Source of the DNA: an uncultured Desulfovibrionaceae bacterium
Lineage (GTDB): Bacteria > Desulfobacterota > Desulfovibrionia > Desulfovibrionales > Desulfovibrionaceae
Length of the DNA: 64,000 nt
Assembly (NCBI GenBank): GCA_964455395.1
Contig: CAYVWB010000010.1
Location: forward strand, 13,731 to 77,730
Direction of reading: 5' to 3'
A model generated the notes under the pieces. It made no database searches and was not told the origin of the DNA. It saw only the letters and a list, made by a program, of their open reading frames with translations. Each line of letters starts with the position of its first letter. The first letter of the stretch is position 1. Position numbers and translations under genes: made by a program. Positions 2-37,212 of this stretch are shown here, in pieces.

Positions 2-2530
2 CAAAGCGATGAAGCAGGCCGGTTCCTCGCCGCCAACGCCCAAATGGCCAAACTCTACGGCTACGACACGGCTGAAGAACTCGTGGAATCCGTGGAGGAT
101 ATCGGCCGCGAGCTGTATGTGGACCCCCGCGAACGCGAAGAGATCCGCGAGTTGCTGCGACAGGAGGGCGAAGTGGCCCAAGCCGAGCGACTCCATGTGC
201 GCAAGGACGGCTCCACCTTCTGGGCTCAGCTCAACCTCCGCCTCGTTTTCGATGACCAGGGCAAAGCCCGCTACGAGGGCTTCGTCACGGACGTCACCGC
301 CATGAAGGAGATGGAAGCCTCCCTCCTGCAGACGGCTTCCTGCTACCGCGCCATGGCGGAGCTTTCCCGGTTGGTGCTCAAAAGCACTTCCCTCAAGGAA
401 ATCTCGGACCTCGTGCTGGAAACGGCCAAGGCCTTCACGGAAAGCCGCGTGGGGTTCGCCGGCTACATCGACCGGCGCGAGGGCAAGCTCGTGTGCATCA
501 CCATGGCTGGCGAGGTCTGGAACGCCTGTCGGGTGGAAGGCAAGCGCGAACTCTTCGAACACCGCGCGGGTCTCTTCGGTTGGGTGTTGGATCACGGCGA
601 GCCATTGTTGTTGAACAACCCCGCGGAGGACCCCCGCACCGTGGGCGCGCCGGAGGGGCACCTTCCCATACGCCGTTTTCTGGCCACCCCGGCAGTCAGC
701 CGCGAAGGAAAAGTGCTGGGCCAGATCGTTCTCGCCAATGCGGACCGCGACTACGACGCCGGCGATCTCGAGATCCTCCAGACCGTGGGCGACCTCTACG
801 GCATCGCCCTGGAGCGCACCGTCACCTTGGAGGAGCTCAAGCGCGCCAAGGATACCGCCGAGGAAGCCGACCGCGCCAAAATGCGTTTCCTCGCCGCCAT
901 GAGCCATGAGATCCGCACCCCCATGAACGGCATCCTCGGCATGGCCGAGTACCTTGTCAGCAAGGAAAATCTGGACCAGGCTCCCTTGAGCGAAGAACGC
1001 CGCGAAGGTCTGGAGGTCATCCAGGACTCGGCGCGCCACCTGCTCACCGTGGTCAACGACATTCTGGATTTCTCCCGCATCGAATCCGGAAAGGTCACGC
1101 TCCAGGCGGACCATTTCGATCTCCACCAGCTGCTGGAGGCCACCACACGCGCCATGCGCGTGCAAGCGGACGCCAAGGGCCTGGAACTCGCCATGGATAT
1201 CGCGGAAGACGTCCCCCGCTACATCCAGGGGGATTCCGGACGGCTGCGCCAGATCCTCAACAATCTCCTCGGCAACGCCATCAAGTTCACGGAGCAAGGC
1301 GGGGTGAATCTGCGCGTCGCCCCGTACGGCGCCCAACGCAGGGAGCGCCGTGTGGAACGCCACAAGCTCGTGGCGCTGTTGTTCACCGTGGAAGACTCGG
1401 GCGTGGGCATCCCGGAGTCCCAGCAGAGTGATATCTTCGAGCACTTCGTCCAGGCTCGGGACGGCTACGTGCGTACTGCCGGGGGCACCGGGTTGGGCCT
1501 CGCCATCTGTCGGCGGCTTGTCAAACGCATGGGCGGCCGCATCTGGGTGGAAAGCGAGCTTGGCCGCGGCTCCACCTTCTATTTCACCGCCGTTTTCGGC
1601 GAAAGCGACGCGGAACGCGCGCGGCCTGTGGTCGGCCTGGACGACTCGCCGGATCCCGACCGCGCGCTCAACGTCCTTGTGGTGGAGGACAACCGCGTCA
1701 ACGCCATGGTGGCCTCCAAGTTCCTGGCGCAATCCGGCTGCCGCGCCGTCACCGCCGCCAGCGGCGAGGAGGCGCTGTCCCTGCTGGCCGCCGAGCCCTT
1801 CGACCTCGTGCTCATGGATCTGGAGATGCCCGGCATGGATGGCTTGGAGACCTTCCGCCGTATCCGTGAAGGCGGCGCCGGCGCGCTGAATCGGGAGACC
1901 CCCGTCATCGCAGTCACGGCGCATGTGCTTGCGGAAGCCCGGGAGCGCTGCGAGGAAGCCGGCATGAACGGCTACTTGACCAAGCCCTTGCGGCTGGCGG
2001 ATGTGCGCCGGGCCTTGGCTTGCGCTGCGCCTCATGCGTTCCTGCCCCGGGAGGAGGGCGACGCCGCCCAACAGCCAGCCGGCTCCATGGCGTCCTGCGT
2101 CTCCGCCACGGTTCGCAACACGCGCAGCCCCGTCGCCGAAGACGCTCCCCCGGCGCTCCGCAGACCACGACATCTTGAAGCGCGTCCCGTCATGGACCGG
2201 GGGGTGCTCTGGGAACGCCTCGGCGGGGACGAAGGCCTCTACCGCGAACTTCTGGACGTCTACGCCAAGGAGATGCCCGGGCTGGTGGAAGAAGCCGTCA
2301 TTGCATGGAAGGACGAGGACTTCGACCGCATCTCCAAGAGCGCGCACGGCCTCAAGAGCGCTTCCGCCACCATTGGCGCGGACGCTCTGCGCGACACCGC
2401 CGTGCGGCTGGAGTTCGCTGCCCGGGAACGCCGCCGCGAGGCTGCATCCGTACTTGTCTCCAGGCTGAAAGGGGACCGTGACAGGTTCCTGGACGAATAC
2501 GAACGCCTCAGCCAGCCGAGTGAGGCGTGA
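2..2530 (+). CDS. hybrid sensor histidine kinase (PAS-GAF-HisKA-HATPase-REC-HPt), 5' end outside window
   Basis: The reading frame is open from base 2 (QSDEAGRFLAANAQMAKLYGYD, PAS-like), so the ATG at 44 is probably internal. Motifs seen: H-box AAMSHEIRTPMNGILG; ATPase boxes LNNLLGNAIKFT, DSGVGI and GGTGLGLAI; receiver VLVVEDN...LVLMDLEMPGMDG...TKP; C-terminal HPt SAHGLKSASATIGA. Confidence 0.85.
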   Translation, partial: QSDEAGRFLAANAQMAKLYGYDTAEELVESVEDIGRELYVDPREREEIRELLRQEGEVAQAERLHVRKDGSTFWAQLNLRLVFDDQGKARYEGFVTDVTAMKEMEASLLQTASCYRAMAELSRLVLKSTSLKEISDLVLETAKAFTESRVGFAGYIDRREGKLVCITMAGEVWNACRVEGKRELFEHRAGLFGWVLDHGEPLLLNNPAEDPRTVGAPEGHLPIRRFLATPAVSREGKVLGQIVLANADRDYDAGDLEILQTVGDLYGIALERTVTLEELKRAKDTAEEADRAKMRFLAAMSHEIRTPMNGILGMAEYLVSKENLDQAPLSEERREGLEVIQDSARHLLTVVNDILDFSRIESGKVTLQADHFDLHQLLEATTRAMRVQADAKGLELAMDIAEDVPRYIQGDSGRLRQILNNLLGNAIKFTEQGGVNLRVAPYGAQRRERRVERHKLVALLFTVEDSGVGIPESQQSDIFEHFVQARDGYVRTAGGTGLGLAICRRLVKRMGGRIWVESELGRGSTFYFTAVFGESDAERARPVVGLDDSPDPDRALNVLVVEDNRVNAMVASKFLAQSGCRAVTAASGEEALSLLAAEPFDLVLMDLEMPGMDGLETFRRIREGGAGALNRETPVIAVTAHVLAEARERCEEAGMNGYLTKPLRLADVRRALACAAPHAFLPREEGDAAQQPAGSMASCVSATVRNTRSPVAEDAPPALRRPRHLEARPVMDRGVLWERLGGDEGLYRELLDVYAKEMPGLVEEAVIAWKDEDFDRISKSAHGLKSASATIGADALRDTAVRLEFAARERRREAASVLVSRLKGDRDRFLDEYERLSQPSEA

Positions 2531-2594
2531 CGCCTGGCCTTTCGCCGCCGCGCGAGAAAGCCGTCGCCCATTCCGTGTATTTCACGCCTGGTTG

Positions 2595-2622
2595 TTGAAA
2601 AAAATCTGCGATCCCTTATGAT
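2595..2622 (+). promoter_or_regulatory. sigma70-like promoter candidate (TTGAAA-N16-TATGAT) upstream of bphO
   Basis: TTGAAA lies at 2595-2600 and TATGAT at 2617-2622 with a 16-nt spacer, inside an AT-rich patch of the 294-bp gap before bphO. This is a sequence match only. Confidence 0.35.
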
Positions 2623-2722
2623 GGTATTTGACGGGTACCGCCTCGTCGCGTCTGGTGTTCCCTGTCGTCCGGCAAACGCTCGCATCAGGCGACAGCCGCC
2701 TTCACGATGCGGTGGCCGAACC

Positions 2723-2767
2723 CCACGCCAACCACGCCAACCACGCCAACCACGCCAACCACGCCAA
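2723..2767. repeat. perfect tandem repeat (CCACGCCAA) x5
   Basis: Five identical 9-bp units were read directly at 2723-2731, 2732-2740, 2741-2749, 2750-2758 and 2759-2767, between the candidate promoter and the bphO ATG. Confidence 0.95.
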
Positions 2768-2824
2768 CAGGCCGCCACCAACCTGCACGCCGCGAGGGAG
2801 CTCCCCAGTTTGGAATACGCATTC

Positions 2825-3430
2825 ATGCCGCAACTCAAGGACGCCATCATGGACCTCCATGACGAGGCGGAACAGCACGGCCCGCTCCACGCCATCCGCG
2901 AAGCCTGCATCGACGAGGCGGGCTACGCCGCCGTGCTGAAACGACTCCACGGGTTTGTCGAGCCGGTGGAGGAAGCCCTAGCCAGGACGCTGCCCCCCTC
3001 GGAGGAGCTCCCCCTGCCGCTGCCTTACGAGGCGCTGCGCCGGCTCCCCGACATCAAGCAGGACCTCGTCGTCCTTGGGGTGGACGCCGCGACGCATCAT
3101 ACGCTCCCTCGGTGCGAGACGCTGCCCCCGCTGGACCATGCCGCGGCGGCCGTGGGCGTACTCTATCTGATGGAGGGCTCGCGCTTGGGAGGACTCGTCC
3201 TTGCGGAAGCCCTGGGCCGTTGTCTGGGGCTGGAGCCCTGCCGCGGCGCCGCCTATTTCGGCTCCTGCGGGAAGGATCCCCGCGCCCTCTGGGGGACATT
3301 CGCGCCTGCTCTGGAGCATTACGCCACGGCCCCGGATCCCACGGCTGCCCCCAGCCGGAGCGCACGCGTCATCCAAGGCGCGCGGCAAGGCTTCATCGCC
3401 CTGAACGCTTGGCTGGAAGCCGAATCATGA
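2825..3430 (+). CDS. bphO: biliverdin-producing heme oxygenase (BphO type)
   Basis: About 200 aa starting at MPQLKDAIMDLHDEAEQ. The region AAVGVLYLMEGSRLGG matches the heme oxygenase family YVLEGSTLGG block. The stop overlaps the phytochrome start (ATGA at 3427-3430). The ORF-track extension back to 2618 only adds the repeat-encoded leader. Confidence 0.75.
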   Translation: MPQLKDAIMDLHDEAEQHGPLHAIREACIDEAGYAAVLKRLHGFVEPVEEALARTLPPSEELPLPLPYEALRRLPDIKQDLVVLGVDAATHHTLPRCETLPPLDHAAAAVGVLYLMEGSRLGGLVLAEALGRCLGLEPCRGAAYFGSCGKDPRALWGTFAPALEHYATAPDPTAAPSRSARVIQGARQGFIALNAWLEAES

Positions 3431-5859
3431 GCGAAACGCCTCCCAACGACGGCGACCAGTTCCAGGTCACCCTGGAGACCTGCGACCAGGAGCCCATCCA
3501 CATCCCCGGGGCCGTGCAGCCCCACGGGCTTTTGCTGGCGCTCTCCGAACCGGATCTCACCGTGGCGCAGCTCAGCGACAACGCCGCGGCCTTTCTCGGT
3601 CGTCCCCTGGAAGAAACCCTGGGCGCCCCCGTGGCCGAGCTTTTGGCCGAGGACTCCTTCGAGGAGCTGCGGCGCCGCAGCCGCGCCACCCCCAAGGAAC
3701 GCGCCCTCGCGCCGCTGCGCATGCGGCTCAAACCACCGGGGGAGGCGACGTTTTTCGATGGCATCGTCCACCGCAGCGGGGAGTTGCTCATTCTGGAGTT
3801 GGAGCCCCAACCCAAAGACGAGCCCTTCTCCTTCGAGAACCTCTACGCCATGGTGGCGGGGCCCACCGGGCAGTTGCAGAACGCGCAGACCGTGACCGAG
3901 TTGCGCGAGAAAACGGCCGCCATCTTCAAGCAGCTCACCGGGTTCGACCGCGTCATGGTCTACCAGTTCGACCGGGACTGGCACGGCGAAGTCGTCTCCG
4001 AAGCCAAGGAGGACCGACTGGAGCCGTTTCTGGGGCTGCATTACCCGGCGTCGGACATCCCCCTCCAGGCGCGACGGCTCTACGTGCTCAACCGCATCCG
4101 GCTCATCGCGGACGTCATGGCGGAGCCCGCCCGGCTCAGACCCGAACGCAACCCCCTCACCGGCGACCCCTTGGACCTTTCCCACGCGGTGCTCCGCGCT
4201 GTATCGCCCATCCATATAGAATATCTACAGAATATGGGAGTGGACGCCTCCATGTCCATCTCCCTGGTCAAGCAGGACGAGCTGTGGGGCCTCATCGCCT
4301 GTCACGGCTACTCCGGTCCCCACTACGTGAGCTACGAGGTCCGCCAAGCGTGCGAATTCCTCGGTCAGACCGTCTCCCTGCTCCTGCCGGACCTGCTCAT
4401 CAAGGAAGAATACGAAGACCGCCTGCAGAAAGACCGCATCCATGACGCTTTGGCCGACCGCGTGGAGAAGCTCGGCGCCATCGGCCCCGACCTCTTGAAC
4501 GGCGAGCCCGGCTTGATGGACCTGGTGGAAGCCGACGGCGTCGCCCTCGTCTACGGCGGCGCTGTCCGAACCACCGGCCGCACCCCCTCGCAGACGCAGA
4601 TTCGCGCGCTTGTGGACTGGCTCATCCAGTCGGAGACCTTCGAGCACAGCAAAGTCTGGGAGACCAACCATTTGAGCGGCGCTTTCCCGGAGGCCGAAGC
4701 CTACGCCGACGCGGCCAGCGGGCTCCTTGCCATGGTCATCGCTCGCACTCGGGGGGACTGTGTGCTCTGGTTCCGTGGCGAAGTGGTGCAGACCGTGAGC
4801 TGGGCCGGGGATCCTTCCAAATCCGTTCAAGTGGACCCCGTCAAGGAGCGACTCTCACCCCGCAAGAGCTTCCAGAAGTGGAAGGAAGTGGTGAACCGCC
4901 ACGCTACCCGCTGGAGCGACGCCGAGATCGACGCTGTCAAACGACTGCGCGTCACCATGGTGGAGACGGAGCGCAAGCGCGCAGAAGCCGAGCTCAAACG
5001 CAGCCATGAGCAGATCGAACAGAAAGTGGCGGACCGCACCGCAGAGCTGGAGCGCGTGAACGCCGAACTCAAGAGCGAAGTGGCCGAACGCAAGCGCGCC
5101 GAGGACGAACTGGAGAACTCCCTCCGCCAGCTGGAGGTGAAGAACGCCGAGCTGGAGCGCTTCACCTACACCGTTTCGCACGACCTCAAGAGCCCGCTCA
5201 TCACCATAGTGGGCTTTCTGGGCATGCTGGAAAAGGATGCGCTGGCCGGAGACGAGTCGCGCATCCGCGAGGACATCGAACGCATCGGCAACGCCGCCGA
5301 CCGCATGCGTGATCTGCTGGACGAACTGCTGAAACTCTCCCGTGTGGGACGCCTGGACAATCCCAAGGAATCCATCGACATGCCCGCGCTGGCCAAGGAA
5401 GCCGCGGAGCTCGTCTCCGGCCGGCTTGCGCGACTCGACGCGAACGTGGAGGTGGACGAGTCCATGCCAGCCGCCTGGGGCGACAAACCCCGCTTGCGCG
5501 AGGTCTTCCAGAATCTGCTGGACAACGCCGCCAAATTCATGCCGCAAGGCCGCGAACCCCGCATCCGCGTCTACTGCCGCGATGCTTCCCCCGGAGAGCC
5601 GGAGGGCCCCGTCTACTGCGTGGAAGACAACGGCATGGGCGTGGATGCGCGACACCACGACAAGATATTCAACATATTCGACAAGCTGGATGCTGACAGC
5701 GAAGGCACCGGCGTGGGCCTCGCCATGGTCAAACGCATCATCGAAGACCTGCACGGCGGCGCCATCTGGGTTCTCTCCGAAGGCGCCGACAAAGGCGCGG
5801 CCTTCTGCTTCACCTTGGCGCCCGCGCCACGAGGTGTGGACGCCACGTCCGAGGAATGA
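3427..5859 (+). CDS. bphP: bacteriophytochrome sensor histidine kinase
   Basis: Start MSETPPNDG. An N-terminal Cys sits immediately before the conserved block (TCDQEPIHIPGAVQPHG). GAF motifs PASDIPLQARRLY and SPIHIEYLQNMG; PHY motif PRKSFQKW; coiled coil; H-box TVSHDLKSPL; ATPase boxes DNGMGV and GTGVGLAMV. Confidence 0.9.
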   Translation: MSETPPNDGDQFQVTLETCDQEPIHIPGAVQPHGLLLALSEPDLTVAQLSDNAAAFLGRPLEETLGAPVAELLAEDSFEELRRRSRATPKERALAPLRMRLKPPGEATFFDGIVHRSGELLILELEPQPKDEPFSFENLYAMVAGPTGQLQNAQTVTELREKTAAIFKQLTGFDRVMVYQFDRDWHGEVVSEAKEDRLEPFLGLHYPASDIPLQARRLYVLNRIRLIADVMAEPARLRPERNPLTGDPLDLSHAVLRAVSPIHIEYLQNMGVDASMSISLVKQDELWGLIACHGYSGPHYVSYEVRQACEFLGQTVSLLLPDLLIKEEYEDRLQKDRIHDALADRVEKLGAIGPDLLNGEPGLMDLVEADGVALVYGGAVRTTGRTPSQTQIRALVDWLIQSETFEHSKVWETNHLSGAFPEAEAYADAASGLLAMVIARTRGDCVLWFRGEVVQTVSWAGDPSKSVQVDPVKERLSPRKSFQKWKEVVNRHATRWSDAEIDAVKRLRVTMVETERKRAEAELKRSHEQIEQKVADRTAELERVNAELKSEVAERKRAEDELENSLRQLEVKNAELERFTYTVSHDLKSPLITIVGFLGMLEKDALAGDESRIREDIERIGNAADRMRDLLDELLKLSRVGRLDNPKESIDMPALAKEAAELVSGRLARLDANVEVDESMPAAWGDKPRLREVFQNLLDNAAKFMPQGREPRIRVYCRDASPGEPEGPVYCVEDNGMGVDARHHDKIFNIFDKLDADSEGTGVGLAMVKRIIEDLHGGAIWVLSEGADKGAAFCFTLAPAPRGVDATSEE

Positions 5860-6341
5860 ACTTTGTTCATGATTATATGTTCATGTGTAACCGGTGCAAT
5901 GCGATGCCTGACAAGACGCCCATCGTCCTTCTGGTGGAAGACAACCCGGACCACGCGCTGCTGACCCGGCGCGCTCTGGAAGACGTCACGCCCGCCGTGG
6001 AGTTCATCCACATCGCGGACGGCGACAAAGCCATGACCTTTCTGGAAGACCACGAAGCCGCGCCCTCGGCTCCCTGGCTCATCCTGCTGGATCTCCGGTT
6101 GCCGCGACGCAGCGGCTTCGAAGTGCTGGAGCGCCTCAAGCAGAACGAGTTCTGGCGGCGTGTTCCCGTGGTGATCTTCACTTCCTCCGAACGCGACGCG
6201 GATGTGGAGGAAGCTTTGCGCCTCTTCGCCAACAGTTACGTGGTCAAGCCTACGGATTTCAACAAGTTTCAGGAACTCATCCGCGCCATGGCGGAATATT
6301 GGCTGCAGTGGAGCAAGCTGCCCCACCAACAGAAGGCGTGA
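5856..6341 (+). CDS. single-domain response regulator (phytochrome-associated receiver)
   Basis: Receiver motifs IVLLVEDNPDHA, LILLDLRLP, VVIFTSS and VVKP. The ATG at 5856 overlaps the bphP stop (ATGA). An alternative start is the ATG at 5904 (MPDKTPIVLL). Confidence 0.85.
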   Translation: MNFVHDYMFMCNRCNAMPDKTPIVLLVEDNPDHALLTRRALEDVTPAVEFIHIADGDKAMTFLEDHEAAPSAPWLILLDLRLPRRSGFEVLERLKQNEFWRRVPVVIFTSSERDADVEEALRLFANSYVVKPTDFNKFQELIRAMAEYWLQWSKLPHQQKA

Positions 6342-6379
6342 GCTCCTCCATGCCTGCCCCCTTGTGAGCCCTCGATCCC

Positions 6380-8104
6380 ATGCAGCAAGACCCCTTGAAC
6401 CTGAACGTCTCCGCCAGCGACTCCACGGCGCGCGTCCTGCTCGTGGAGGACGACGAGGACCACGCTCTGCTGGTGGCGCGGGCCTTCGAGGGAGAGGCGT
6501 CGCTCACCCTGGAACGCGTGGCGACCCTGGCGCAAGCCCGCGAAGCCCTTGCCGGAAGCGCATTCCACCTCGTTCTGGCGGATCTCATGTTGCCGGATGG
6601 CCGTGGGCTCGATCTGTTGTCCGAAGACGGCGGCGCGGCGCCCGTCGTCATCATCACCTCCCAAGGGGACGAACGCAGCGCCGTGGAAGCGCTCAAACGC
6701 GGCGCAGTCGATTATGTCCCCAAAACGCCGCAAGCCCTGGGCGACGCCCCCCGGCTCTGTCGGGCCGCCTTGCGGCAGTGGACGGAACAATCGCTACGCC
6801 GCGCGGCGGAAGCGGCCCTGCGCGACGCCAACGAAGTCCTCGAAGCCAGGGTGGCGGAGCGCACCCGCGAGCTTGAAACAGCCAACCGGGTGAAAGCACA
6901 GTTTCTTTCCAACATGAGCCACGAGCTGCGCACGCCTTTGACCGGCATCCTCGGCGTGGCCGAGCTGCTCCAGGACACCACGCTGAGCCAGGAGCAGCGC
7001 GAGTATCTGGACCTCATCGAGCAAGCGGCGCGTCAGCTCAACGCCAACGTCGACAATCTGTTGGAACTTTCCGCGGTGGAGTTCGACGCGCCGGTCATCG
7101 CCGCCAAACCCTTCCATCCCCGTCCGCTGCTGGAATCCATGGCGTTGGCCGCGTCGGTCAAGGCCTCCAGCAAACAGCTCGCGTTCCGGTACGACCTGGC
7201 TGCGGATATCCCGCCCGTGCTGGTGGGGGACGCGCTGCGCATCCGCCAGGCGCTGCTGCAGCTGTTGTTGAACGCCGTGGCTTTCACGCCCCAAGGCGGC
7301 GTGACCATGCGCGCGCATGTGGAGCCGGCGCATGGCGAAGCAACCGTGCGGCCCGGCGCCGCCGCTCTGTTCGTGGTGGCTGTGGAAGACACCGGCGTGG
7401 GCGTGCCTTCAGACAAGCTGGAAGCCATCTTCGAAAATTTCACCCTCGGCGAAGACTATATGGTGAAAGCGCACGGCGGCGCCGGCGTGGGGTTGTCCAT
7501 CGCGCGCAAACTCGCCCGGCTCATGGGGGGCGAGGTGCTGGCGCACAGCGTGGTCAACCAGGGCAGCGTCTTCACCCTCTCCGCGCAGGTCTCCGTGCCG
7601 GAAACAGCCGACGAAACCCCGCGCCATGTGGAGGATGAACAGGCGGTGCGCAATCCTGCCGCCGCGCGACTCACAGGCTGCGCCGAGGCGCCGACGTCCA
7701 TCCTTGTGGTGGAGGACGACGCCGTCATCCGCCGCGCCTTGCGCCGCGCGCTCGTGTCGCACGGCTACGTCACACAGGGTGTCCCCAACGGCCGCGACGC
7801 TCTGCGCAAGCTTGCGACGGACCGTTTCGATTGCGTGCTGATGGACTTGCAGATGCCTGTCATGGACGGCCTGGAAGCCACCCGCCGCATCCGCAGCGGC
7901 GAGGACCCCCGCATCGACGCGCGCATCCCCATCATCGCCATTTCAGCTTTCGCCCAGACGCAGGAGCGAACGCAGCTTCTGGCGCACGGTCTGGACGAAC
8001 TGGCGTTCAAGCCGCTGCAGGGCCGGGCTCTGCTGGAACTCATCCGGGACGTCCTGGAACGCCGCCGGCATACTCCACCCGGGGCCGGCGGGGACCTCGG
8101 CTGA
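6380..8104 (+). CDS. hybrid histidine kinase (REC-HisKA-HATPase-REC)
   Basis: N-terminal receiver (VLLVEDDEDHA, LVLADLMLPDG); H-box SNMSHELRTPLTGILG; ATPase boxes (LLLNAVAFT, DTGVGV, GGAGVGLSIA); C-terminal receiver (ILVVEDD, CVLMDLQMPVMDG). Confidence 0.85.
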   Translation: MQQDPLNLNVSASDSTARVLLVEDDEDHALLVARAFEGEASLTLERVATLAQAREALAGSAFHLVLADLMLPDGRGLDLLSEDGGAAPVVIITSQGDERSAVEALKRGAVDYVPKTPQALGDAPRLCRAALRQWTEQSLRRAAEAALRDANEVLEARVAERTRELETANRVKAQFLSNMSHELRTPLTGILGVAELLQDTTLSQEQREYLDLIEQAARQLNANVDNLLELSAVEFDAPVIAAKPFHPRPLLESMALAASVKASSKQLAFRYDLAADIPPVLVGDALRIRQALLQLLLNAVAFTPQGGVTMRAHVEPAHGEATVRPGAAALFVVAVEDTGVGVPSDKLEAIFENFTLGEDYMVKAHGGAGVGLSIARKLARLMGGEVLAHSVVNQGSVFTLSAQVSVPETADETPRHVEDEQAVRNPAAARLTGCAEAPTSILVVEDDAVIRRALRRALVSHGYVTQGVPNGRDALRKLATDRFDCVLMDLQMPVMDGLEATRRIRSGEDPRIDARIPIIAISAFAQTQERTQLLAHGLDELAFKPLQGRALLELIRDVLERRRHTPPGAGGDLG

Positions 8105-13700: not shown

Positions 13701-14375
13701 GAGCTGGCTGCGCGTCGCGCCGAGGTCCGCAGGGAGCTCGCCCTCTGTGAAGAGTCCCGCGATCGGCACCAGGCAGAGCTCACCACCGCCCGCAACGAGC
13801 TTGAGGCCATGGACGGCGAGTCCAGAGCGGCTCTTGTCCGGGAGCAGGCTGCGCAAAAGGCCTCCGCCCTCCAGGGGCATGTGGAGCGCTACGTCGTGCT
13901 TTCGCTGGCGGGCAGGCTCGTGGCTCGGGAGATAGAGCGCTACCGCAAGGCCAATCAGGACCCCGTGCTGCAGTCAGCCAGTCAGTATTTCGCCGCCATG
14001 ACCGCAGGCCGGTATCTGCGTGTTGACGCGGATTACGACGAGAATGGCGACGCCGTGCTCGCAGCCGTGCGGCGGGAGGGCGAAACGGCGTCTCGGCTGG
14101 GCGTCTCCCAGCTGAGCGACGGGACGCGGGATCAGCTCTTCCTCGCCATGCGCTGCGGCGGTCTGGAGCGGTATCTTGAGAACAACGCGCCCCACCCCTT
14201 CATCGTCGACGACATCCTCGTGCATTTCGACGATGCGCGCAGCAAGGCCGCGTTGAAGGCCTTGGGCCAGCTGGCGTCGCGTACACAGGTTATTTTCTTC
14301 ACCCACCACGAGCACCTCGTGGCGCTGGCCGAGGCCGCGGCGCCGACGTTCCTGCGTGTGGTGCGTCTGGAATAA
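10734..14375 (+). CDS. SbcC/YhaN-like AAA ATPase with long coiled coil
   Basis: Start MRIRRFELRAYGPFTG, 5 nt after the upstream stop. Walker A is GPNEAGKST. There is about 900 aa of E/R/A-rich coiled coil. The C-terminus has the signature LSDGTRDQLFLA and Walker B FIVDDIL. No CxxC zinc hook is visible. Confidence 0.8.
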   Translation: MRIRRFELRAYGPFTGAELDFGPGPHGFTLVYGPNEAGKSTALRAIRRYFYGIPVRINEDIQRHPKQQLELAAELELGDGGRLLASRHKRKKNYLLDSGGEPIDDAWWNVNVLNRLDKSAFQRLFGIDHESLRDGRAALESGLGQALMAAAGGVAGLRNVMASLEEEAGELFKPRGRKLVIPELVGEIVALNKEVDRLAAKPAHYEELREHAAECERRKRRAEARQRELAAEESLLDRRKQARQRARERLEIRERLDAFENIPNLPAAFDSEYVQAAEGARHAESTSAKLQTRLEWLRAELDRLQPDRTILEAAPLVDGLAERRLVRAARQEEQEELEQERRDLEARRCAILQTLDRADTLEQSLAWTLPRARKDAVWGLVSERQAAEETLRQTQAAWREAEAEHRGLARRLEETPLASDVETLDRLELAVRAAAETPALCERLEEAAAEHARLARHVEAALRGLAPWRGDAATLEAVSFPLESTVSRTGEALHRAETRLDAARDEVHRLQTHLDERRREIHQIETEVSGVLKKSEADADSSSLPDATTLQTARALRDEGWGLLRDQWTGVSAAGNKDAIHRFLHHFPAHRTLEDAYAAAVRQADGVADAMFHHAERIARREQARREAQALETALADAERLRDEARSDRETAAAAWGELWRAVLEDPPSPAEMREWRSNAERAREQILALRDVEARRTRMQERADSLFKDLRETLSAYAAVQAGANPDAPERLEPSESPDALRRLRAHAEQVAAEGREQANRRVRLREQLAAVARQVHTAEERRVAAEARMATWREAWLAQVTPLGFTRESAEADDAPQRVTAFLGAMSEAASLAQRVTELGRRLEDIRTEQTVFAQETRRLAARVAPDLTPEDGEGMRAEDLARALAERLDRARKDETTREARRKELAEVRAEAAEAAAALETARNRLLILAKRMGVEPEQAPERLERIALKRELFSTLENLESELRGFAQGDPLETFANDALAHDPDELAARRAEVRRELALCEESRDRHQAELTTARNELEAMDGESRAALVREQAAQKASALQGHVERYVVLSLAGRLVAREIERYRKANQDPVLQSASQYFAAMTAGRYLRVDADYDENGDAVLAAVRREGETASRLGVSQLSDGTRDQLFLAMRCGGLERYLENNAPHPFIVDDILVHFDDARSKAALKALGQLASRTQVIFFTHHEHLVALAEAAAPTFLRVVRLE

Positions 14376-14401
14376 AAAAACCGACAGGATGATCCTGTCG
14401 G
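14374..14401 (-). terminator. intrinsic terminator (minus strand), end of RNA candidate copy 1
   Basis: The minus strand reads CCGACAGG-ATCAT-CCTGTCGG followed by T7. On the plus strand this is an A7 run at 14374-14380 followed by the hairpin at 14381-14401. Confidence 0.65.
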
Positions 14402-14584
14402 CGGCGGGGGGGAAATCTTCACGCGGGCTGGGATAACCAGCTGTCTCGAAATCTGTATTCGAGCGGGGATGCGTGTATCAGCGTCTCCCGAAGCGCTTTT
14501 TCGCGCTGTTATGGGGAATCGGCTCCATATTTTTCCTGCATCCTCCGTTGCGTGGTTCTCGAAAACAGCCACTCATCGTCTGTT
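14374..14584 (-). ncRNA. candidate structured small RNA, copy 1 (family not recognised)
   Basis: Bounded by the promoter-like TGGACA-N16-TAATAT (14591-14618) and the terminator at 14374-14401. It shares spaced conserved blocks and hairpins with copy 2. No frame-conserved ORF is present. Confidence 0.4.
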
Positions 14585-14590
14585 ACTTCT

Positions 14591-14618
14591 ATATTAAGCA
14601 CGCTGCGGATGGTGTCCA
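14591..14618 (-). promoter_or_regulatory. sigma70-like promoter candidate for RNA copy 1
   Basis: On the minus strand, TGGACA (14618-14613) is followed by a 16-nt spacer and TAATAT (14596-14591). Confidence 0.45.
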
Positions 14619-14696
14619 GTCCCTCATGATGACTTTTTGCAGTTCTCTGCTTCCTGTGCGCAGTGCGAAGCAGGCTGCGTGCTTCGTCATTCAGAC

Positions 14697-14728
14697 AAAA
14701 AAATACCGTGAGGGTTGCAACCTCACGG
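14697..14728 (-). terminator. intrinsic terminator (minus strand), end of RNA candidate copy 2
   Basis: The minus strand reads CCGTGAGG-TTGCAAC-CCTCACGG, then TA, then T7. On the plus strand this is an A7 run at 14697-14703 and stem arms at 14706-14713 and 14721-14728. Confidence 0.65.
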
Positions 14729-14905
14729 CCAGGGGAACTTGAACTGCGCGCGGTCTGGAATAACCAGCGCTCTCGTGTTGCTCATTACGAGCGGGGATGC
14801 GCGCCTTGTCTGTGTCCCATGCGCCTCGTCGCGCGTTGTATGGGGTCATGTCGCATTAGTAGGCTCGTCCCTCCGTCGCGGTTCAGATACCTTTCCTCTG
14901 CCTCA
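14697..14905 (-). ncRNA. candidate structured small RNA, copy 2 (paralogue of copy 1)
   Basis: It has the same blocks at the same spacing as copy 1, offset by about 328 bp, and its own terminator. A TGGACA box is conserved at 14938-14933, but the -10 region is poor (TACTTC), so the 5' end is uncertain. Confidence 0.35.
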
Positions 14906-15059
14906 CTCATGAAGTAACCATCACTGCGGCGTTGTCCAGAGGCGTCGGGCGAATTTGATGGAACCATGCGTCGGCGATGAAGGGGCGCGGCCCTGTGGCG
15001 CGCCCCTGTGGCTGCGTGTGGGCGCTTGTGGGGACTGCAGAGTGCGGGCGGCGACGGCG

Positions 15060-15590
15060 CTAGCCGCAGGATTTTGTCCCGGCGAAGGCTTTCCACAGCA
15101 CCGAGCTGGAGAGGAAGGAAGACGCGTGGAAGGCCGCATCGAAGACGTCTGCGTCGGTCCAGCCGTGGCCGCGCAGTGTGTCAACATCCGCAGCGGAGAC
15201 AGCTTCGGGGTCTTCCAGCATCGAGAGGATGAAGAGGAAGAGCGCTTTGCGAGCGTCGTCCATCTCCACGGCTTCGGGGGTTTCGCGCAAGGCGCGGAGG
15301 TCGTCTTCCGTCATCATGGCGGCGGCCTGCAGGATGGAGCCGTTGAAGTCGTAGCAGAACTGGTAGCCGTAGCGGTGGGCCAGCACGTAGCGGGTCATGG
15401 CGAGAAGCTCCATGTCCAGCCGCGGATGGGCCATGAAGTACTGCATCAGCGAGGCCTGTCGGGACAGGATTTCCGGGGAGGCGGAGAAGAGGACCATGGG
15501 GTCCGGCACGGGGACGGCCGGGGGGAGCACGGCGTAGGCGTCGGCGATCTTGCCTTCTGCTTCATCTGGCGGGGTGTGGTTCAAGAGCAT
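15060..15590 (-). CDS. carboxymuconolactone decarboxylase / AhpD-like family protein
   Basis: 176 aa starting at MLLNHTPPDEAEG, with the SD AAGGAG upstream. The all-helical sequence and overall resemblance point to CMD/AhpD-like proteins, but no CxxC motif is seen. The assignment is tentative. Confidence 0.5.
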   Translation of the reverse strand: MLLNHTPPDEAEGKIADAYAVLPPAVPVPDPMVLFSASPEILSRQASLMQYFMAHPRLDMELLAMTRYVLAHRYGYQFCYDFNGSILQAAAMMTEDDLRALRETPEAVEMDDARKALFLFILSMLEDPEAVSAADVDTLRGHGWTDADVFDAAFHASSFLSSSVLWKAFAGTKSCG

Positions 15591-15823: not shown

Positions 15824-16876
15824 ATGATCAAGGCGAGCATCAATGGTTTCGGTCGCATCGGCCGCACCGCCATGCGGGTCTATCTGAGCCGTCCGGACCT
15901 CCGGGAGGCCCTGGACATCGCAGCCATCAACACCTCCGGCAGCATGAATCTGGAAGGCTGGGCCATGTTGCTGAAGCACGACACAACCTATCGCGGCCTA
16001 CCCAATGAATTCGCCTGGGAAGAAACGCGGCCCGCCAGCGAGGCCACGGACGCCGACCCCGAGATCGGCGTCTTCATCATCGACGGCAAGCGCATCCCCG
16101 TCACGGCGCAACGCGATCCCGCCAAACTCCCGTGGAAGGAGTACGGCGTGGAACTCGTGTTGGAGTGCACCGGCGTCTTCCTGAGCGAAGACAAGGCCAA
16201 AGCGCACCTGGAAGCCGGCGCCAGACGTGTGCTCCTCTCCGCGCCGGCCAAAGGCGGCGGCGTGGAAACCCACCTCCTCGGCGTCTCCAAGCACGCGCCT
16301 TCCGGGGCCATCGTCTCCAACGCCTCCTGCACCACCAACTGCGTGGCCCCTGTCATGGAAGTCCTGCACGAAGCCCTGGGCGTGAAGAAAGCAAGCCTCA
16401 CCACCGTGCATGCCTACACCGACGGGCAGAACATCCAGGACGGCTCGCACAAGAAGGACATGTACCGCGCGCGCGCCGCCGCGGAGAACCTGGCGCCCAC
16501 CTCCACCGGCGCAGCCAAGGCCGTGACCCAGGTCATCCCGGCGTTGGATGGGCTCTTCGACGGTCTGGCCATCCGCACGCCCACGGTCACCGGCTCCATC
16601 TCGGACATCGTGGCGCTCACGAGCCGGGAGACGACCATCGCCGAAGTCAACGAGATCTTCACCAGGGCCGCCGCTTCCAACGCCATGCGCGGCGTGCTCG
16701 GCGTGACCGAAGAACCCCTCGTCTCCAGCGACATCATCGGCTCCAGCTATTCGTGCATTGTGGCGCTGCCCTTCACCAACGTCATCGACGGCGACCTGGT
16801 GAAGGTGCTTGCTTGGTACGACAACGAATGGGGCTACTGCTCACGTCTGGTGGAGCTGGCCACGAAGCTCGACTGA
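15824..16876 (+). CDS. gap: type I glyceraldehyde-3-phosphate dehydrogenase
   Basis: MIKASINGFGRIGR (NAD-binding N-terminus), the active-site block SNASCTTNC, and WYDNEWGY near the C-terminus. The SD GGGAGG lies upstream. Confidence 0.92.
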   Translation: MIKASINGFGRIGRTAMRVYLSRPDLREALDIAAINTSGSMNLEGWAMLLKHDTTYRGLPNEFAWEETRPASEATDADPEIGVFIIDGKRIPVTAQRDPAKLPWKEYGVELVLECTGVFLSEDKAKAHLEAGARRVLLSAPAKGGGVETHLLGVSKHAPSGAIVSNASCTTNCVAPVMEVLHEALGVKKASLTTVHAYTDGQNIQDGSHKKDMYRARAAAENLAPTSTGAAKAVTQVIPALDGLFDGLAIRTPTVTGSISDIVALTSRETTIAEVNEIFTRAAASNAMRGVLGVTEEPLVSSDIIGSSYSCIVALPFTNVIDGDLVKVLAWYDNEWGYCSRLVELATKLD

Positions 16877-37136: not shown

Positions 37137-37212
37137 TGGAGCGGGCGACGGGATTCGAACCCGCGACCCCAAGCTTGGGAAGCTTGTACTCTACCAGCTG
37201 AGTTACACCCGC
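37137..37212 (-). tRNA. tRNA-Gly (anticodon CCC), CCA encoded
   Basis: The minus strand reads GCGGGTG TA ACTCAGCTGGTAGAGT A CAAGC TTCCCAA GCTTG GGGTC GCGGG TTCGAAT CCCGT CGCCCGC T CCA. The cloverleaf was folded by eye and has a 7-bp acceptor stem and a TPsiC arm with loop TTCGAAT. Confidence 0.9.

Follow-up and report, generated by a model that had tools for sequence, protein, structure and literature searches.

Tandem paralogous small RNAs are known from diverse bacteria, among them PrrF1/PrrF2 in Pseudomonas, OmrA/OmrB in E. coli, AbcR1/AbcR2 in Rhizobiales, and LhrC1-4 in Listeria. The copies in these families are intergenic neighbours on the same strand, have terminators of their own, and retain conserved blocks between diverged segments. 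Here we describe a candidate pair of this kind in a stretch of 64,000 nucleotides (nt) from an uncultured Desulfovibrionaceae bacterium (contig CAYVWB010000010.1, positions 13,731 to 77,730 of the forward strand); this stretch is called the window below, and all positions are counted from its first letter. A first-pass annotation, made by reading the letters of the window, had proposed that two copies of one unit in a gap without a convincing open reading frame (ORF) represent a duplicated gene for a structured RNA. This proposal is partly supported, by the paralogy of the units, their terminators, their common predicted structure, the absence of a coding pattern, and the absence of a match in Rfam, but not by covariation among homologues. 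We consider it somewhat probable that the units are a tandem pair of paralogous genes for structured non-coding RNAs, candidate members of an undescribed and apparently lineage-restricted family.

Like the described tandem pairs, the two units are intergenic neighbours on one strand, each with its own intrinsic terminator. In contrast to those pairs, they are longer (~210 nt) and more branched in prediction, they match none of the known pairs in Rfam 15 either by sequence or by structure, and they have no homologue that we could find outside this genome. They are also far more diverged from each other (57% identity) than PrrF1 and PrrF2. The presence of three CCCC motifs per unit recalls the C-rich anti-Shine-Dalgarno RNAs (RsaE/RoxS, LhrC, and the Staphylococcus RNAs with the UCCC motif). 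However, the motifs of the units are mostly paired in the predicted ensemble, the Rfam model of RsaE does not match the units, and by our own estimate three such motifs per ~215 nt are about what composition would yield in this G+C-rich genome. In length (~200 nt), predicted multi-branched fold, conserved junction core, variable periphery, own terminator, and stand-alone position, the units resemble the raiA motif RNA. At that, orphan RNAs of the raiA type have hundreds of covarying homologues, whereas here there are two sequences and no match to an Rfam model. Finally, unit 2 is similar to the small RNAs derived from 3' untranslated regions (CpxQ, SroC, and DapZ) in that it lies directly downstream of a protein gene, here of the CMD family, and carries the first canonical terminator after it; unlike these RNAs, unit 1 has its own promoter and lies outside any untranslated region.

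Paralogous units and their transcription signals

The gene-free gap (14376-15059, 684 bp) extends between the stop codons of two convergent genes, a plus-strand gene for a YhaN/SbcC-like ATPase (1214 amino acids, AAA_27), which ends at 14375, and a minus-strand gene of the CMD family (AhpD-like, 15060-15590), which lies upstream of unit 2 on the same strand. As had been remarked before, the gap is less G+C-rich than its flanks (50-58% versus 63-73%). The same sequence is also contained in the Logan assembly of SRR7048223. Unit 1 corresponds to a predicted minus-strand RNA of ~210 nt (14374-14586), counted from a putative start ~7 nt past the -10 hexamer through the last U of the tract. Unit 2, its paralogue of ~215 nt, occupies 14697-14912 of the same strand, with the 5' end placed by alignment with unit 1. 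The two are offset by 327-329 bp.

Homology of the units is supported by several measures. The sequences GCATCCCCGCTCG and GCTGGTTATYCCAG have exact matches only at two sites in the 64 kb window, 327-328 bp apart, and all five conserved blocks reported in the first-pass annotation are found where it had placed them. After removal of the terminators, the local alignment of unit 1 with unit 2 has a score of 52; by comparison, 1000 dinucleotide-preserving shuffles score at most 29, and alignments with 1110 other window segments at most 27. Identities (57% over 209 aligned columns) are clustered: the longest run measures 17 (p = 0.005), and for the sum of squared run lengths p = 0.001. The covariance model R1 of the 143-nt core gives 158.5 bits to unit 1 and 158.1 bits to unit 2; there is no third copy in the window, where the next-best match with filters off reaches 6.7 bits. 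The units are true paralogues, homologous well beyond chance, and the alignment points to an old tandem duplication, some segments of which have been kept unchanged.

Both units end in intrinsic terminators that were called on the minus strand by a terminator scan. The terminator of unit 1 (14374-14402) consists of GCCGACAGGAUCAUCCUGUCGGU followed by U7, with a 10-bp stem and a 3-nt loop, and that of unit 2 (14697-14729) consists of GCCGUGAGGUUGCAACCCUCACGGU followed by AU7, with a 9-bp stem and a 7-nt loop. Thus the private terminators suggested earlier are present, although their stems are 10 and 9 bp long and not 8 bp as had been stated. The stems of the two units differ at two paired positions, and both differences are compensatory. 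The U tract of unit 1 overlaps the TAA stop codon of the convergent YhaN-like gene by 2 nt.

Upstream of unit 1, a promoter scan identified the sigma-70-type promoter TGGACA-N16-TAATAT (14591-14618, minus strand) that had already been seen by eye. It is the sole promoter-like site in the region 14000-15400 (one found, with 0.3 expected from shuffles). A box CTGGACA..CCGCAG that corresponds to the -35 hexamer and spacer of unit 1 lies at 14924-14940 on the minus strand before unit 2, and its conservation suggests a promoter or operator there too. A sigma-54 promoter was considered for this box and rejected on inspection, as 10-11 nt separate its GG and GC elements in the two copies, and not the invariant 12. 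Between the stop codon of the CMD gene and unit 2 there is a single hairpin, a G+C-rich one at 14979-15009 (minus strand), ~50 nt after the stop codon and outside the repeat unit. It has no U tract, the terminator scan does not call it, and for want of this tract CMD transcripts may end at the terminator of unit 2. The same hairpin is also a tandem direct repeat of 13 nt (GGCGCGGCCCTGT / GGCGCGCCCCTGT).

Two further sequence features of the intergenic region were observed. An 11-nt inverted repeat (14596-14606 / 14674-14684; AAGCACGCTGC / GCTGCGTGCTT; 91% complementary) brackets the promoter of unit 1. One of its arms falls within the promoter spacer, and the second is 67 nt further upstream. 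The repeat might serve as an operator pair, or else form an RNA structure in read-through transcripts from unit 2. The motif (C/G)ATGAG(T/G)G occurs three times on the minus strand, in the loop of the 5' hairpin of unit 1 (14572-14579), just upstream of the -35 hexamer of unit 1 (14621-14628), and at the 5' end of unit 2 (14904-14911), with offsets that do not match the 327-bp period of the repeat.

Predicted fold and coding potential

Folded separately, the two units yield the same four-way junction formed by the helices P0, P1, H1, and H2, and in both of them the predicted order is a 5' hairpin, the junction, a C-rich linker, and the terminator. The closing helix P0 is CACGC/GCGUG in unit 1 and CGCG/CGCG in unit 2; its predicted 3' strand is GCGUG at 14420-14424 in unit 1 and GCGCG at ~14745-14749 in unit 2 (minus strand, as are all elements of the fold). 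In the long arm P1, the invariant CGG-A-GG is predicted to pair with the invariant CC-CCG. The former belongs to the invariant box ACGGAGG (14542-14548 in unit 1 and 14870-14876 in unit 2), whereas the 3' strand of P1 is supplied, together with the 5' strand of H1, by the second invariant box CGCAUCCCCGCUCG (14460-14473 and 14788-14801). H1 has a variable loop and reads CUCGAA-7 nt-UUCGAG in unit 1 (14445-14463) and CUCGU-10 nt-ACGAG in unit 2 (14772-14791), its fifth pair being A:U in the former and U:A in the latter. Both stem and loop are conserved in H2, (G)CUGG-UUAUY-CCAG(C), at 14427-14441 and 14755-14768. A GCGC hairpin with a variable 6-nt loop (14492-14507 and 14821-14834) is enclosed by a CCC/GGG helix. 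The two internal hairpins of the first-pass annotation are present just as it described them, and so is the exchange in the fifth base pair of the CTCG hairpin.

Since GCGYG can pair with either of two upstream CRCGC segments, two alternative folds are predicted. Pairing with the nearer segment would create a three-way junction locally and release both the AUCCCCG box and the GGAGG box, and the closing stem of this local fold contains a compensatory change of A:U to G:C. Other compensatory changes between the units are located in H1 and in the terminator stems. The ACGGAGG box has an unpaired probability of 0.20-0.22 in the predicted ensemble. The three CCCC motifs of each unit stand at equivalent positions (CCCCAUA, AUCCCCGCU, and the C run before the terminator); they are mostly paired, the one exception being the open 3' C run of unit 1 (0.84).

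The minimum free energy of unit 1 is -71.7 kcal/mol (z = -3.1 relative to shuffles). The RNAalifold consensus energy of the two units was compared with that of 300 column-shuffled alignments. For whole units the consensus z is -5.8, with none of the 300 shuffles as good and a structure conservation index of 0.62 versus 0.31 in shuffles; for the 143-nt core without terminators z is -3.2, two of the 300 shuffles are as good, and the index is 0.50 versus 0.33. On the plus strand the core has z = -2.0, and ten of the 300 shuffles are as good. Thus the structure common to the units exceeds the column-shuffled controls, and it is slightly stronger on the minus than on the plus strand. Identical columns make up 45 of the 48 paired but 38 of the 94 unpaired ones, and identity is 87% in the junction core versus 42% in the periphery, a contrast drawn post hoc.

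Analysis of coding potential leads to a negative answer. The 93-nt core, from ACGGAGG to GCAUCCCCGCUCG, aligns between the units without gaps, so that all reading frames are common to both, contrary to the earlier statement that the short ORFs are in different frames. Nevertheless, the conclusion drawn from that statement, that a structured RNA gene fits better than a protein gene, still holds, because the 41 mismatches are distributed over the three codon positions as 15/12/14, without a period-3 pattern (a comparison of two sequences, with low power). In one frame, an ATG codon stands in the same column of both units and opens peptides of 16 amino acids in unit 1 and 23 in unit 2; the stop codons of these mini-ORFs are at different positions, and the best-conserved nucleotides fall 3' of the stop codon in unit 1. 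The absence of a convincing ORF from the gap, also claimed before, has to be restated: mechanical ORFs of up to 103 amino acids do exist there, but a Pfam search with eight ORFs drawn through the gap produced no match at E <= 1. Overall, the units have no coding signal and nothing supports a protein, within the low power of the comparison.

Search for relatives and alternative interpretations

None of the 4227 models of Rfam 15 matches the units at the gathering threshold in a cmscan search. At E <= 10, the region 14300-15100 has three noise matches only (mir-2830, s2m, and SNORA77; 12.8-17.1 bits with thresholds of 42-70). The family had not been recognized in the first reading either. In 185,579 species genomes, the pattern CATCCCCGCN{12,36}CTGGTTATNCCAG has no true homologue and one match, in a metagenome-assembled genome (MAG) of Ardenticatenaceae, that was rejected as chance, being in GC-rich and apparently coding DNA with no unit-like features. 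Another pattern, GCATCCCCGCTCGN{7,18}CGAGN{2,7}CTGG, which combines block 1 with the stems of H1 and H2, retrieved 96 loci from JGI metagenomes, all judged to be chance matches; blastn extends none of them beyond the forced 13-16 nt, and none is scored above 19.7 bits by R1, the best scores of 14.6-19.7 bits being weak. The two best loci (L019 and L023) were likewise judged chance, and another one (L042, 14.6 bits) lies inside an ORF and lacks a terminator. Nothing was obtained from two pattern scans of viral contigs, from blastn against plasmid and phage records, or from the R1 search of ~92 kb of Desulfovibrionales loci, and no homologue beyond the two units appeared when the entire window and ~650 kb of fetched loci were searched with a covariance model. 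Since exact blocks of 9-13 nt were required, diverged relatives could have escaped the pattern scans.

Genome context was examined through three genes. The nearest homologues of the CMD gene (71-74% identity), taken from O. marinus, an Oceanidesulfovibrio MAG, and ENA and JGI contigs, all belong to the gene order AzlC-AzlD-CMD-rhodanese, where the gaps measure 50-160 bp and no unit is present. For the YhaN-like gene, homologues of the C-terminal third are at most 62% identical, and nothing similar is seen in the two contexts compared. The adjacent GAPDH gene is a divergent accessory copy (best identity 68%) whose relatives have unrelated neighbours. As both genes flanking the gap sit in different contexts in the nearest relatives, synteny is uninformative. 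In the literature, no small RNAs are reported for Oceanidesulfovibrio, and nothing similar is described in Desulfovibrio. Thus the homologues with covariation in related genomes, to which the first-pass annotation had looked, were found neither by pattern scans nor by blastn or R1, and covariation is limited to the two copies.

Several of these observations weigh against the interpretation of the units as a pair of RNA genes. No homologue of the unit was found in any collection searched, and the covariation for this reason rests on two sequences. The helices are near-invariant, which neither supports nor contradicts pairing and leaves only ~3-5 compensatory changes. The difference between core and periphery is post hoc because the structure itself rests in part on those very conserved columns. 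Unit 2, with a minimum free energy of -73 kcal/mol, has a single-sequence z of only -1.4. It also has no acceptable -10 hexamer (TACTTC or TTACTT are the candidates), and no promoter is called there by the scan. Finally, the unpaired probability of the AUCCCCG box in the predicted ensemble is 0.00-0.12, which is unusual for a seed region.

The lack of a -10 hexamer is one of three facts consistent with a different division of the locus, in which unit 1 alone would be an independent small RNA gene, whereas unit 2 would be a structured 3' untranslated region of the CMD mRNA, maybe processed into a small RNA. The others are the location of the CMD gene directly upstream of unit 2 on the same strand and the hairpin at 14979-15009, which follows its stop codon without a U tract and is not called as a terminator. 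Conservation of the CTGGACA..CCGCAG box (the -35 hexamer and spacer of unit 1) before unit 2 argues for a start there instead, and the nearest relatives have the rhodanese gene within 50-160 bp after the CMD gene, with no such untranslated region; we regard this division as unlikely. The failure to find homologues in any collection could also mean that the locus contains no functional RNA, being either a non-functional tandem duplication or a set of protein-binding sites at the DNA level (CTGG-N5-CCAG and CTCGAA-N7-TTCGAG). The conserved blocks are indeed palindromic and so read the same on both strands. However, neutral decay would leave neither a 17-nt identical run at 57% identity (p = 0.005) nor two full terminators with differing stem sequences, and we find this explanation rather improbable.

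A conserved junction core with a variable periphery and a terminator ~20 nt later is typical of riboswitch leaders, and the units might be orphan riboswitch-like cis elements, each an aptamer with a terminator, arranged in tandem. As the minus strand 3' of unit 1 holds only the antisense of the YhaN-like gene (ending at 14375) and no gene for control in cis, ligand-dependent read-through would in this case produce RNA antisense to YhaN/YhaO. We think this very unlikely: on inspection of the sequences and folds, which was not a systematic search, no antiterminator pairing of the junction with the 5' strand of either terminator was seen; unit 1 has its own promoter between the units; Rfam riboswitch models have no match; no homologues were found upstream of genes; and a regulated gene is missing downstream on the same strand. 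Even less credence is given to the suggestion that the units encode small basic peptides, MEPIPHNSAKKRFGRR (16 amino acids, unit 1) and MRHDPIQRATRRMGHRQGAHPRS (23 amino acids, unit 2), prompted by the ATG codon that stands in the same column and frame of both units, 13 nt past the conserved GGAGG. The two peptides are of unequal length and have 6 of 16 residues in common, the mismatches (15/12/14) show no excess at the third codon position, the most conserved nucleotides are beyond the stop codon of unit 1, Pfam has no match, and the GGAGG box is predicted to be paired. A bolder form of the RNA interpretation, improbable in our estimate, would make the units the first two members of an undescribed class of ligand- or protein-binding structured RNAs, riboswitch-like or RNP-forming orphans restricted to a lineage of Desulfovibrionaceae. 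Such RNAs might gate the antisense transcription that enters the convergent nuclease-ATPase operon YhaO/YhaN. The conserved four-way-junction core of such a class would comprise the ACGGAGG/CCCCG helix, the base of the CUCG hairpin, and the CUGG-UUAUY-CCAG hairpin.

The interpretation that we favour, a tandem pair of genes for structured RNAs, suggests the following scheme. The ~210-nt genes would have arisen by an old tandem duplication (period 327-329 bp) and would be transcribed on the minus strand. Unit 1 would start from its own sigma-70-type promoter, the signal of which is present in the sequence and the function of which is presumed, whereas unit 2 would be made from a weak promoter with the same -35 box or as the 3' end of the upstream CMD transcript; each RNA would end at its own strong intrinsic terminator. 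Selection would have preserved the H2 loop and the core of the junction, leaving the periphery to drift. Most likely, the RNAs would act in trans after release at the terminator. They may be base-pairing regulators in which C-rich stretches, AUCCCCGCU and the CCCC run ahead of the terminator, bind to G-rich ribosome-binding sites; the internal GGAGG box would then be a self-mask exposed by the alternative fold. Otherwise, the conserved junction may be a binding platform for a protein or a ligand. We lean slightly towards a structure-dependent function over a simple seed, because the AUCCCCG box is nearly fully paired in prediction and the core is conserved while the periphery is variable. Expression of the units, their action in trans, and their mode of action are inferred only.

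Target prediction by RNAduplex against the translation start regions of the window was dropped because the duplexes were uniformly long and meaningless (mean -47 to -51 kcal/mol). The role of a CsrA sponge was also rejected, with only ~6 GGA motifs in unit 1 that are not conserved in the loops of unit 2.

Regulatory RNAs of sulfate reducers are barely charted, and a confirmed pair would add a lineage-specific regulator beside an AhpD-like gene of the peroxidase family. It would also be a clean natural case of divergence of a duplicated RNA gene, the junction core being kept and the periphery free to change. At present, the units are one of many plausible orphan candidates for small RNAs.

Neighbouring genes and other features of the window

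The CMD (AhpD-like) protein is 71-74% identical to the proteins of O. marinus and the Oceanidesulfovibrio MAG, Oceanidesulfovibrio being the nearest named relative. Its gene has the accessory GAPDH gene and the RNA units as neighbours here, but is found in the order AzlC-AzlD-CMD-rhodanese in the relatives (O. marinus, the MAG, and metagenome contigs), and this difference in context suggests a local rearrangement at the CMD gene. The type I GAPDH (15824-16876, plus strand) is unusually divergent, with a best database match of 68% identity. Its top matches are from a Desulfovibrionales MAG, Desulfovermiculus, and bacteria of the candidate phyla radiation, and the top 120 include no Oceanidesulfovibrio orthologue; the gene here probably represents a second, acquired copy.

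On the other side of the gap, the plus strand provides no U-tract terminator for the YhaN-like gene itself. The last 11 nt of this gene (14365-14375; GTCTGGAATAA, stop codon included) are identical to the plus-strand sequence of the H2 hairpin of unit 2 (14753-14763), probably by chance.

The sole gathering-level match to Rfam in the window is a tRNA gene (37140-37212, minus strand). A cluster of three sensor-kinase genes is located at 44-8104 on the plus strand. It includes a bacteriophytochrome-type histidine kinase (3112-5859, plus strand) with the domain order PAS_2-GAF-PHY-HisKA-HATPase, flanked by the two others, of which one is a GAF/PAS hybrid kinase that has an Hpt domain and one carries two receiver domains; such a light- or bilin-sensing module is notable in a sulfate reducer.

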